Origin: an uncultured Clostridia bacterium
Lineage (GTDB): Bacteria > Bacillota > Clostridia > TANB77 > CAG-508
DNA length: 64,000 nt
NCBI GenBank assembly: GCA_947629045.1
Contig: CANRCF010000002.1
Location: forward strand, 32,012 to 96,011
Direction: 5' to 3'
This document shows positions 4,957-9,605 of this stretch, piece after piece (within the stretch, counting starts at the first letter, position 1; the number at the start of each line of letters is the position of its first letter). A program made the translations under genes and the position numbers. The notes beneath the pieces were generated by a model that searched no databases, was not told where the DNA came from, and saw only the letters and a program-made list of their open reading frames with translations.

Positions 4957-4994
4957 TTTTTCCACCTAACTTGCTATTTATATTATTTAATTTT

Positions 4995-5112
4995 GCTAAA
5001 AATATTATGTTTTGCAAGCACCGCTTAAGCGTCCTAAACGAAACGAAGTGAAGCGCGTTTGGAGCAACTTTATGTTGCGACAGCAAGGTGCAAAAAACAT
5101 AATATTTTTAGC
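4995..5112 (+). repeat. GC-rich structured intergenic element, copy 1 (short form, no nested hairpin)
   Basis: AT-rich inverted arms GCTAAAAATATTATGTTTT...AAAACATAATATTTTTAGC enclose conserved blocks ACGAAGTGAAGCGCGTTTGGAGCAAC and GTTGCGACAGCAAGGTGCAAA, shared with copies at 6936 and 9401. Confidence 0.85.
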
Positions 5113-5291
5113 TATATTTAAATGACTATGTATTTTATATCATTTTTCGGCAAAAAAGTAAATTGTTTTACATTTATTTTTTTATTATAATAAGCTTGTT
5201 ATAACAATTTATTTTTAAAAATACATAAAAATTATAGTAAATTTCAAACTAGTATGGTAAAATAGTATTAAAAGTGGAGAGGAATGGTTAT

Positions 5292-5633
5292 ATGATAGAT
5301 GAAAGAACAAAGAAAATTTTAATGGCAATTGTAAAGCATTGCAATATAATAGAAGAAACCAAATTATATTTTGGAGATAATTATAGCAATTTTGAAGAAA
5401 ATAGTATATATCAAAATGCAATACTTACACCAGTAACTCAAATTGGTGAATTGGTAAAACGATTATCAAATGAATTTAGACAAGAAAATAGTGAAATTCC
5501 TTGGAAAAATATCGCAGGAATGAGAGATATAGTAGTTCATAATTATGAAACAATTGACAAACTTATACTTTGGAATGTTGCTGATACAGAAATTGAAAAA
5601 CTAAAAAACTTTTGTATTAATCTTTTGAAATAA
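5292..5633 (+). CDS. hepT: HepT-like (DUF86/HEPN) toxin, predicted RNase
   Basis: RX4HXY motif present as RDIVVHNY, and the ~113 aa size fits. ATG at 5292 lies 8 nt after GGAGAGG; the track start at 5274 is a GTG in the RBS. Confidence 0.8.
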   Translation: MIDERTKKILMAIVKHCNIIEETKLYFGDNYSNFEENSIYQNAILTPVTQIGELVKRLSNEFRQENSEIPWKNIAGMRDIVVHNYETIDKLILWNVADTEIEKLKNFCINLLK

Positions 5634-5645
5634 GGAGGACTACAA

Positions 5646-5939
5646 ATGTCAGAATTAGAAATAATAAGTAAAAAGATAAAACCTGTTGCTCAAAAATATA
5701 ATCTTATGTATGTATGGATATTTGGTTCATATGCTAAAAAGAAACAAAGAAAAGATAGTGATATTGATATTTTAGTACGAACAGAAGATGTTGCAGAAGG
5801 ATTTAAAATCGTAGAGGTAAAATTTGCATTAGAAGAAGTTTTGGAAAAGGAAGTTGATATTGTTACAACAGGTAGTATAAAAGGTTCATTATTAGAAGAT
5901 GAAGAATTAGGCGAAGTTTTAGTATACCAAGCTGAATAA
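5646..5939 (+). CDS. mntA: MNT-type minimal nucleotidyltransferase (cognate antitoxin of HepT)
   Basis: GS-X9-DSDID motif (FGSYAKKKQRKDSDIDILV), 97 aa, RBS GGAGGA, and a 12-nt gap after hepT. Confidence 0.8.
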   Translation: MSELEIISKKIKPVAQKYNLMYVWIFGSYAKKKQRKDSDIDILVRTEDVAEGFKIVEVKFALEEVLEKEVDIVTTGSIKGSLLEDEELGEVLVYQAE

Positions 5940-5969
5940 AATAGTGCAAAAGAAATAAAGGAGATACAA

Positions 5970-6908
5970 ATGTTTAAAGAGAAAGTAGATTTTTATAGCC
6001 CAGTTAGTTTAAAATCGTATAACTTAGACCAAGTAATGCGTTATCAATTAGATGTATTAGAAAGATTAGATCCGTTTACAAGACGACATAGTGAAAATGT
6101 TGCTAATTTAGCTTGTAGAATTTGTGAATATTTGCATTGTACACAAGCATTTACTATTCATTGTACAATTTGCGGATATTTGCATGATGTTGGAAAAATG
6201 TTCATTCCAGTTGAAATTTTAAGTAAGCCGACTAGATTGACTGATGAAGAATATGAAATTATGAAAAAGCATACTACTTTTGGTTATCAAATGTGTATGA
6301 AAGATATTAAATTAAGACCTTATGCATTAGCTGCATTAGACCATCATGAAGCCTTAGATGGCACTGGTTACCCAAATGGTATTACTAAAAAAGACATTCC
6401 TTATGAAGCTCAAATTATACGTGTTGCAGATGAATATGATGCAATTGTTACTAAAAGACATTATACTACTCACGTTAATATTTCTGAAACGCTAAAAGAT
6501 TTAATTAAAAATGCTAAGCCTGATCCTAAATTTCTTGCTCTTGATCAACTTGCTGAAAAACGTAAAGAGGGTAAAGTTAATGGCCTTATTTTAAGAAAAT
6601 TATTTAAAGTTGTTATTGATGATACTTTATATGAAATTAGTGGAATTGTAGACTATGTAAATTACTTAGAACAACAAATTAAACGTCTAGAAGTTATAAA
6701 AGGATATCAGAAAAAAGCTGATAATTCTAATAAGGAAAAAACAAAAAATTATTATCATGAAGGTATGAGATTATTATTACAAGAGGGAGAAACCTTTGAG
6801 AATTATGACACTATATTAAATGAATATAAGGAAGCTCTTGTTAATCGTAATAATTTAATTCAAAGATTATATGACGAAATTAAGATTATTAAGAGATTAA
6901 GAGTTTAG
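5970..6908 (+). CDS. HD-GYP domain phosphodiesterase with a C-terminal coiled-coil-like extension
   Basis: HD (LHDVGK), HHE and GYP (DHHEALDGTGYPNG) motifs. RBS AAGGAG; 30-nt gap after mntA with no intervening terminator. Confidence 0.8.
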   Translation: MFKEKVDFYSPVSLKSYNLDQVMRYQLDVLERLDPFTRRHSENVANLACRICEYLHCTQAFTIHCTICGYLHDVGKMFIPVEILSKPTRLTDEEYEIMKKHTTFGYQMCMKDIKLRPYALAALDHHEALDGTGYPNGITKKDIPYEAQIIRVADEYDAIVTKRHYTTHVNISETLKDLIKNAKPDPKFLALDQLAEKRKEGKVNGLILRKLFKVVIDDTLYEISGIVDYVNYLEQQIKRLEVIKGYQKKADNSNKEKTKNYYHEGMRLLLQEGETFENYDTILNEYKEALVNRNNLIQRLYDEIKIIKRLRV

Positions 6909-6935
6909 AAATTTAAATATATAATTTTTAAAAAA

Positions 6936-7086
6936 AATATAGTTTTTGTGTAGTGGCGCGCAGCGTTCAAACGGAACGAAGTGAAGTGCGCTTGGAGCAA
7001 CCATCATATATTGAAAAAAGATGTAGATATTCTACATCTTTTTTCATAAAAAGTTGCGACAGCAAGCTACAAACAAAAGCTATATT
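6936..7086 (+). repeat. GC-rich structured intergenic element, copy 2 (with nested terminator hairpin)
   Basis: Arms AATATAGTTTTTGTGTAG / CTACAAACAAAAGCTATATT. The same conserved blocks as copies 1 and 3 are present. Confidence 0.85.
7014..7044. terminator. bidirectional intrinsic terminator nested inside repeat copy 2 (serves the HD-GYP gene and the PBP gene)
   Basis: A6-GATGTAGA-tat-TCTACATC-T6, between convergent genes. Confidence 0.7.
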
Positions 7087-7124
7087 ATTTTTTATATTAT
7101 TTACTTATTTTTAATTAAATTTTT

Positions 7125-9347: not shown

Positions 9348-9400
9348 TTTTTCCTTTCATTATTACATATATTTCTTTATTTTAAATTTATTATTTCAAC

Positions 9401-9554
9401 AATATAGCTTTTGTGAAGCCACCGCGCAGCGTTCAAGCGAAACGAAGTGAAGCGCGCTTGGAGCAACCAACATACCATTGTAATAAATTGTAGAGAATCT
9501 ACAATTTATTACATAAGGTGGTTGCGACAGCAAGGTGCAAACAAAAACTATATT
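9401..9554 (+). repeat. GC-rich structured intergenic element, copy 3 (with nested 35-nt palindrome)
   Basis: Arms AATATAGCTTTTGT / ACAAAAACTATATT. Conserved blocks ACGAAGTGAAGCGCGCTTGGAGCAAC and GTTGCGACAGCAAGGTGCAAA. Confidence 0.85.
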
Positions 9555-9605
9555 GTTCAGTATATTTAATCAATCTATAATAAGCAATTATTGTTTTATA
9601 AGCAA

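Follow-up and report, generated by a model that had tools for sequence, protein, structure and literature searches.

The bases at 5034-5062 of the DNA analysed here, a 64,000-nucleotide stretch from an uncultured Clostridia bacterium (the window, in whose coordinates positions are given), lie in the conserved GC-rich core of a nested-palindrome repeat that behaves unlike an RNA gene. We consider this repeat to be probably a selfish DNA element, small and non-autonomous and of the MITE, REPIN or Correia kind, forming a new repeat family. Three copies lie in the window, and their extents and parts are collected in Table 1. G000 denotes the genome holding the window and G007-G021 its congeners; C and L numbers denote contigs and excised loci.

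Table 1. Extents and internal parts of the three repeat copies in the window. R1 is the covariance model of the element.
Feature	Position	Strand	Details
Copy 1, whole element	4986-5116	+	R1 match G000:C2:36997-37127, 134.3 bits
Copy 1, palindrome proper	4995-5112	+	sequence reading
Copy 1, outer stem P1, left arm GCTAAAAATATTATGTTTT	4995-5013	+	partner 5094-5112; read and folded
Copy 1, outer stem P1, right arm	5094-5112	+	partner of 4995-5013
Copy 1, P2, 5' strand GCACC	5018-5022	+	partner GGTGC 5087-5091
Copy 1, P3 mini-hairpin, GCTTAAGC variant	5023-5030	+	
Copy 1, hairpin of the initial annotation	5034-5062	+	CTAAACG 5034-5040, 15-nt loop AAACGAAGTGAAGCG, CGTTTGG 5056-5062; not the conserved fold
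Copy 1, P4' arm	5038-5054	+	N-C 5038-5039 with G-N' 5053-5054; interior GAA / ACGAAGT / GAA
Copy 1, P5 arm	5059-5083	+	TTG 5059-5061 (P5ext) with CAG 5081-5083
Copy 1, P5 tandem G-A	5062-5063 and 5079-5080		
Copy 1, P5 helix	5064-5068 with 5074-5078		GCAAC with GTTGC; loop TTTAT
Copy 2, whole element	6921-7096	+	R1 match C2:38932-39107
Copy 2, P3 mini-hairpin	6958-6964		GCGCAGC
Copy 2, counterpart of the hairpin at 5034-5062	6967-6995		TCAAACG 6967-6973, loop GAACGAAGTGAAGTG, CGCTTGG 6989-6995; third pair A x C
Copy 2, P4' arm	6971-6987		A-T
Copy 2, P5ext	6992-6994 with 7060-7062		
Copy 2, P5	6997-7001 with 7053-7057		
Copy 2, P5 apical palindrome	7014-7044	.	A6, stem-loop, T6
Copy 3, whole element	9386-9564	+	R1 match C2:41397-41575
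Copy 3, P3 mini-hairpin	9424-9430		GCGCAGC
Copy 3, counterpart of the hairpin at 5034-5062	9433-9461		TCAAGCG 9433-9439, loop identical to copy 1, CGCTTGG 9455-9461
Copy 3, P4' arm	9437-9453		G-C
Copy 3, P5ext	9458-9460 with 9528-9530		
Copy 3, P5	9463-9468 with 9520-9525		
Copy 3, P5 apical palindrome	9479-9513		

The genome G000 (1.36 Mb, 28% G+C, 34 contigs) contains 37 copies when searched by nhmmer with an HMM of the core, and 38 matches were obtained with R1, a covariance model made from 12 short copies in which the outer stem, P2 and P5 alone are specified. R1 also matched 35 times in G015, 26 times in G017, 11 times in G021 and 1-5 times in each of six other congeners, and gave no match in 14 further congeners or in 16 genomes from other families of the order. 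The family is confined to a subclade within a single genus of uncultured, low-GC gut Clostridia, known as bins from rabbit-gut metagenomes. The element is 115-190 bp long and non-coding, and every copy is intergenic according to gene calls made as simple ORFs. Rfam 15 gave no match at gathering score across the whole window and, at E values up to 10 around the copies, chance-level matches only; plasmid and phage collections gave no match to the element. A whole-collection pattern scan with GAAGYGCGYTTGGAGCA returned 112 matches, mostly chance, in unrelated phyla, and R1-true copies among them came only from two rabbit-gut bins and one bin named "uncultured Clostridium sp.".

To examine the interior of the fold, we parsed 90 distinct copies, drawn from nine genomes in the genus, by sequence anchors alone: CAA-N-CG, which follows P3, and positions at set distances from GAGCA. 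The interior was aligned without gaps, with the variable tips replaced by a TTTT placeholder, which left 60 distinct rows. An A+T-rich outer stem P1 of 19-25 bp and a 5-bp P2 enclose a junction. All 19 family-wide pairs of P1 carry double changes and 97.3% of its cells are paired, terminal inverted repeats being present and the arm sequence varying among subfamilies; P2 has double changes at 5/5 pairs and is 98.2% paired. P1, P2 and P5 together are 97.7% paired with 699 double-change cells against 171 in shuffled alignments, figures that are somewhat inflated because this alignment was fitted to those helices; double changes occur in 28/29 pairs and none of 500 shuffles scored as high. P3, a hairpin of 3 bp closed by a GNA loop, reads GCGNAGC in 71/90 copies; its support consists of one compensated variant (CAC-GCA-GTG) and of variation limited to the loop.

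P4' is an arm of 2-7-bp helices with GNA or GNNA caps and GAA/GAA internal loops between them, and it lengthens or shortens by units of about 5-10 nt. At its base, N-C and G-N' close a 3x3 loop of GAA/GAA (or GGA, GTA) beneath the tip hairpin; the tips include ACGAAGT, GCGTAAGC and GCTAC-GAA-GTAGC, while in the short type the whole arm is reduced to GCGAAGC, and C-GNA/GNNA-G is found in the P4' arm of 88/90 copies. P5 consists of the 3-bp P5ext, a tandem G-A/G-A step, the P5 helix and a variable A+T apical palindrome that is sometimes terminator-like. That of copy 2 looks like a two-way terminator as judged from its letters; a simple terminator scan did not call it, the stem having too few G-C pairs. 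The apical palindromes, including those of copies 2 and 3 and many copies genome-wide, form small families of their own (GTAATAAATTGTAGAG.ATCTACAATTTATTAC; A6-GATGTAGA…TCTACATC-T6). They recur with different arms and P4' types, and the element is therefore a mosaic of exchangeable modules.

Covariation in the interior supports P4' and P5ext. The base N (5038; A/G at 5038/9437) covaries with N' (5054), the Y of GAAG-Y-GCG, the states in the 90 copies being A-T 59, G-C 21, G.T 6, C-G 3 and AxC 1, so that 89/90 are pairable and copy 1 of the window has the sole A x C of the family. The C-G pairs arise in G010 and the G-C pairs in copy 3, the short type and the types of G007, G009 and G016, so that several independent events are represented. 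Similarly, G5061 covaries with C5081, the first base after the 3' GTTGC-GA (G-C 80, C-G 6, T-A 1, GxG 3). For P4', P5ext and P5 together, 95.5% of cells are paired against 85.8% in shuffles, 56 cells show double changes against 13, and the covariation score is 0.339 against 0.138, a value reached by 0/500 shuffles. Descent links many copies, so these cell counts overstate independent events, of which there are at least three for N-N' and at least two for P5ext. An RNAalifold alternative that pairs GCGC with GCGX was rejected: its support came from G-U-compatible changes alone, and it fails in the L227 variant, in which P3 is compensated.

The initial annotation had drawn a different helix, a seven-pair hairpin at 5034-5062 with a conserved 15-nt purine-rich loop and a compensatory change at the third pair from the loop, and had taken the two as the mark of selection on an RNA or ssDNA structure. 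Its letters and coordinates for the three copies are correct (Table 1), and the third pair is indeed A-T in copy 1 and G-C in copy 3. With 90 copies, the compensation disappears: the third pair (N with X of CG-X-TTGG) is pairable in just 38%, the commonest state being A x C (AxC 35, G.T 15, A-T 12, AxA 12, G-C 7, GxA 5, CxA 3, other 1), and it is unpaired in 36 of the 60 distinct rows. None of the seven pairs has a change on both sides in these rows, the covariation score (0.102) lies below the mean of the shuffles (0.121) and is equalled or exceeded by 493/500 of them, and the outer C-G pair is broken in 7/7 copies in which the G differs. The loop, said to be identical, occurs exactly in 3/90 copies and exists in 29 variants of 3-27 nt; at the site orthologous to copy 1, both G015 and G017 have a version 10 nt shorter (...TCCT-AAGCGAAGCGCGTTTGG), with P4' in the short GCGAAGC form. 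No part of the core is less well conserved than this loop. In the 90-copy comparison, then, the stem pairing is not preserved and the loop is variable, the two outcomes that the annotation itself had held to tell against its hairpin.

The hairpin can be drawn in copy 1 and lies within the DNA minimum-free-energy fold, yet it is not the conserved fold. It could be thought of as a real alternative conformer that competes with P4' and P5ext in some copies as a two-state switch, since the two arrangements are mutually exclusive and 7-8 pairs are possible in copy 1 and the short F-type copies. We regard such a switch as extremely unlikely, given that no pair shows a double change, that the third pair is unpairable in 62% of copies, and that in all seven copies with an altered outer G it is the P5ext partner that tracks the change. 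What stands of the original proposal is its general part: a single-strand fold does constrain the element, as the outer stem, P2 and P5 show, but not through the hairpin drawn at 5034-5062. When only two or three copies of a palindromic repeat are compared, a compensatory change is weak evidence, and here it indicated the wrong helix.

The premise that only structural selection gives complementary changes was also incomplete, as exchange at the DNA level yields the same pattern. Arm-to-arm recombination and template switching in closely spaced inverted repeats also produce complementary changes, without any selection on RNA. Such exchange occurs in this element, as the frequent inversions in place show. 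When the ±500-bp flanks of the relatives' copies were compared with G000, 43 sites were filled in both genomes, and at 17 of them the core is inverted relative to its flanks, some of these flips possibly reflecting in part mixed populations from which the assembler picked one state. Between copy 3 and its G015 orthologue, for example, the flanks and arms are the same and the interior is reverse-complemented; an arm mismatch is carried to the opposite side, which places the breakpoints within the outermost arms.

Of the two forms of nucleic acid that had been proposed, ssDNA fits the data better than RNA. RNA families usually tolerate many G-U and few A-C pairs. In the element the stems are near-pure Watson-Crick, with 30 G.T and 18 A.C among about 2700 stem cells. 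In G000 the cores, 0.18% of the genome, contain 39 GCGNAGC sequences on their element strand and two on the opposite strand, against 63 in the rest of that genome, and the P4' arm matches GCGNAGC or GCGNNAGC in 43/90 copies. These are letter for letter, and on one strand, the mini-hairpin DNAs of Hirao and colleagues, with P3 reading GCGCAGC or GCGTAGC and the P4' tip GCGAAGC or GCGTAAGC (PMC13037366); for d(GCGNAGC) and d(GCGNNAGC), melting temperatures of 70-76 °C are reported (PMC13037366). The known natural examples differ in being single sites (ssDNA phage and plasmid priming origins, phage N4 promoters) and not a dispersed chromosomal repeat. In nearest-neighbour folding the core alone is no better than shuffles (z -0.2 to -0.9) on either strand, as DNA or as RNA; this calculation, whose parameters do not capture the exceptional thermal and nuclease stability of such folded DNA, is uninformative for the core, so that the case for mini-hairpins depends on the identity of the motifs. 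Mismatches of the GAA/GAA and G-A/G-A kind persist amid complementary surroundings, which suggests that the folded single strand itself is under selection.

The purine-rich, motif-bearing strand lies mostly antisense to co-directional neighbour genes (antisense:sense 21:6 in G000, 18:5 in G015, 16:1 in G017 and 6:2 in G021; about 80% overall), so that ordinary read-through transcripts carry its complement. An orientation bias of about 80% together with frequent flipping calls for selection or orientation-dependent loss. We tried GC skew as a means of splitting replication polarity from transcription polarity and set it aside, as it is confounded by gene strand.

An alternative to be weighed against these observations is that the element is a structured small RNA or a cis-acting RNA family whose purine-rich strand is transcribed, for example as a protein-binding or processing signal. 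P1, P2, P4', P5ext and P5 covary strongly and the unpaired purines are conserved, as such a family would have it; GUAA and GAAA loops and tandem G-A are RNA motifs too, GNRA-type loops and tandem G-A being found in both nucleic acids; T.G is frequent in P5ext (UG 28 against UA 24 of 60 rows); and the whole element folded as RNA is far better than shuffles (z = -5). We nevertheless hold an RNA family to be unlikely. The strand in question is the one that read-through transcripts mostly do not carry, no promoter is conserved across arm types, and G.U pairs account for just about 1% of the stem cells, being no commoner than A.C. Moreover, the core orientation flips among close relatives, the taxonomic spread is patchy with copies lost, and Rfam holds no match.

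In our preferred account of a selfish DNA element, the purine-rich strand would work as ssDNA, its motifs being those of hyperstable DNA mini-hairpins, and, once folded, would be recognised by a putative mobilising or host protein. Arm complementarity would be maintained via arm-to-arm recombination or template switching, the same process would flip the core, and selection on RNA would be unnecessary for explaining the complementary arms. Any effect on neighbour genes, for instance through a terminator or a long hairpin formed in read-through RNA, would be a by-product.

The frequent flipping brings up a further explanation, in which the copies are multi-locus invertons whose cores are flipped by a master invertase, an outward promoter in the core switching the neighbour genes. 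The segment between the inverted repeats is seen in both orientations between genomes (17/43 orthologous cores), an AAAATAT-type motif is common to the arms, and in copy 1 a TTGCGA-17-CATAAT sequence reads out of the right end. Homologous invertible-promoter families in gut Bacteroides are mentioned in one account (PMC10403206). We judge this explanation very unlikely: the promoter-like match is tied to one arm type and has a spacing of about 21 nt in copies 2 and 3, the region contains 23 promoter-like matches against 27.2 in shuffles, and the conserved non-Watson-Crick motifs and the covariation of the core stems have no promoter role. Furthermore, closely spaced inverted repeats can flip without a dedicated enzyme.

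Copies are not only flipped but also lost. At sites filled in the relatives, G000 retains one-arm remnants at C3:29421, C32:72806, C1:69172 and C14:34907, both arms with the core lost at C8:40425-40479, and no palindrome at all at C19:10843, C5:39121, C32:5120 and C32:44950. The absence at C32:44950 is a loss, because the element is present there in both G015 and the more distant G007. Some sites are common to G000 and G021, G007, G010 or G012 at a flank identity of 70-90%. The filled/empty comparisons gave no clean insertion with a target-site duplication, their junctions looking like deletions at short repeats or at the palindrome base, and for each informative empty site a deletion is an equally available reading; the case for mobility is therefore one of copy number and subfamily structure only. 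At the site of copy 2, R1 has no match in G015 or G017. The G017 site was considered as a clean empty target and rejected, as the intergenic sequence is too diverged and has an ordinary small hairpin there.

The region beside copy 1 is a variable spot adjoining the repeat. In the window, two small plus-strand genes (5274-5890) separate copy 1 from the next gene. G017 is without their counterpart, the sequence after copy 1 joining straight to the homologue of 5890-6907, and G015 has ~1.76 kb of different DNA after copy 1.

These patterns bear on the possibility that the element is a host-domesticated ssDNA signal, for priming or primosome loading or as recombination or replication punctuation, kept as useful to the chromosome. 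Similar mini-hairpin motifs mark ssDNA priming sites in phage G4 and in ssiA of RSF1010 (PMC13037366), the motifs have a strong strand polarity along with the orientation bias, and some sites are common to species whose flanks are only 70-85% identical. Yet the element is missing from the majority of species in the genus and from every sister family sampled, copies are readily deleted, and the orientation at a given site is not fixed. If genes follow replication, the folding strand would be mostly the leading-strand template, which is unexpected for lagging-strand priming. We therefore consider a domesticated signal quite unlikely.

There are also signs of exchange among copies. All G021 copies bear a G021-specific core signature (CGATT..., extra base after GA), and such genome-specific signatures at old shared sites point to exchange among copies within a genome. 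Copy 1 itself has the look of a short-type copy into which an A-type tract was transferred, with its end immediately before N'; this would account for the unique A x C of copy 1. Three G015 copies (L171:5936-6081, L181, L185) have GCGTGGGCAAGG in place of GCGACA(A/G)CAAGG after P5, and this 4-nt replacement at three loci may be a further sign of inter-copy exchange.

A mobilising partner was sought in the genomes. PF01797 (Y1 transposase/RAYT) is absent from G000 and G015, the two copy-richest genomes, and turns up in certain congeners, some carrying the element and others lacking it. G017 encodes a 256-aa RAYT-like Y1 transposase (ORF 3079-3849 of L241, G017:C3:7000-13500) between a PBP1A gene and dnaJ; R1 found no element beside it, and it is bracketed by inverted copies of its own hairpin AAGACAATGGGACGGGGTTTTTGTCTT (L241 2901-2930 and 4180-4210). 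We rejected RAYT/Y1 as the partner on these three grounds: absence from G000 and G015, presence in genus members whether or not they carry the element, and flanks in G017 that are a different hairpin. A hairpin similar to AAGACAATGGGACGGGGTTTTTGTCTT, TAAGACAACGGACTGGCTTTTTGTCTTAAG, lies in G000 at about C18:18740, though G000 is without a Y1 gene. As for an autonomous IS with the same ends, no IS-length arm pair was found in G000, the one genome scanned, and its only extra arm pair encloses another small core.

There is also a small chance that the element is a new ssDNA mobile or replicative unit, in which one strand, folded into a junction of hyperstable GNA mini-hairpins and sheared G-A steps, would be the substrate of a non-Y1/HUH enzyme, and the flips and copy-specific complementary arms would be products of its reaction, for example of hairpin-primed or template-switch synthesis of one arm from the other, rather than of passive recombination. 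Should there be an enzyme partner, the element would be a lead to a new ssDNA-recognising activity.

Among known repeats, the element is closest in behaviour to Correia elements and REPINs, and the defining features of both fail. Correia elements (CREE/NEMIS of Neisseria) are likewise intergenic, about 100-160 bp long and present in many copies, with long terminal inverted repeats that fold on themselves as a long hairpin. Both kinds of element undergo loss and gain between strains, outward promoter-like sequences lie at the ends of CREE as one promoter-like match does at the right end of copy 1, and CREE are documented as inverting in place (PMC10969869, citing Elbeyioglu 2017). There is, however, no sequence similarity, and no TA duplication was seen at the element. 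Correia elements have their own conserved 26-bp repeat, whereas the arms of the Clostridia element differ between copies and its core has a conserved multi-branch structure that contains GNA mini-hairpins as well as internal helices that covary, in a low-GC Clostridia lineage and not Neisseria. REPIN/REP sequences share with it extragenic hairpin-forming palindromes, a proposed folding as ssDNA, long persistence at vertically inherited sites and the tetranucleotide GTAG, found in many P3 hairpins (GCGTAGC); compensatory changes on both sides are common in REPINs too (PMC3116915). The element differs from them in its asymmetric core set in unrelated A+T-rich arms, which is not a REP doublet, and in the Y1/RAYT findings described above. 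Having no 26-bp repeat or TA duplication and no cognate RAYT, it is therefore filed as a new family of small palindromic intergenic repeats.

Other likenesses are looser. Bacterial MITEs are also short (under about 300 bp), non-coding and multicopy with terminal inverted repeats, but no autonomous IS sharing the ends of the element was found in G000. BOX elements of Streptococcus pneumoniae are modular intergenic repeats whose internal module varies in copy number and which have a predicted stable structure; their boxB units are about 45 bp, against 5-10-nt units in one hairpin arm here, and there is no sequence relation. The flip/flop terminal hairpins of parvoviruses offer an analogy in their long outer stem with small internal hairpins, T- or cross-shaped as ssDNA, and in an interior found in two orientations. 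Those hairpins are the ends of linear viral ssDNA genomes and invert by hairpin transfer, whereas the element is internal to a chromosome, and we know of no Rep-type nickase for it.

The element represents a repeat family not described before, from a gut lineage that has never been cultured, and it unites in one unit a long-arm palindrome, letter-perfect one-strand mini-hairpin DNA motifs and frequent inversion in place. It could be usable as a strain marker for these bacteria, and it is a natural case for how palindromes persist, flip and are deleted in a small A+T-rich genome.

Two related kinds of palindrome were seen elsewhere in the genome. A second small palindromic family, outside the window (G000 C4:43640-43790 and C1:133886-133973), has 24-bp perfect arms of the same type (…AAATGAAAATATTATGTTTTT) around an unrelated core of ~98 nt (TTCACTCCATCCCTGCTTCGTAAC…), and this core is also present, 100% identical, in G017 (L187:3531-3628); judging from these letters, the arms may be a module common to more than one core type. 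In addition, perfect palindromes of arm-like sequence without any core occur in G000 at C12:16975-17000, C34:67040-67075 and C6:10450-10495 (for example CTAAAAATATTATATTTTTAG), and they are either remnants of core loss or the kind of hairpin in which cores settle.
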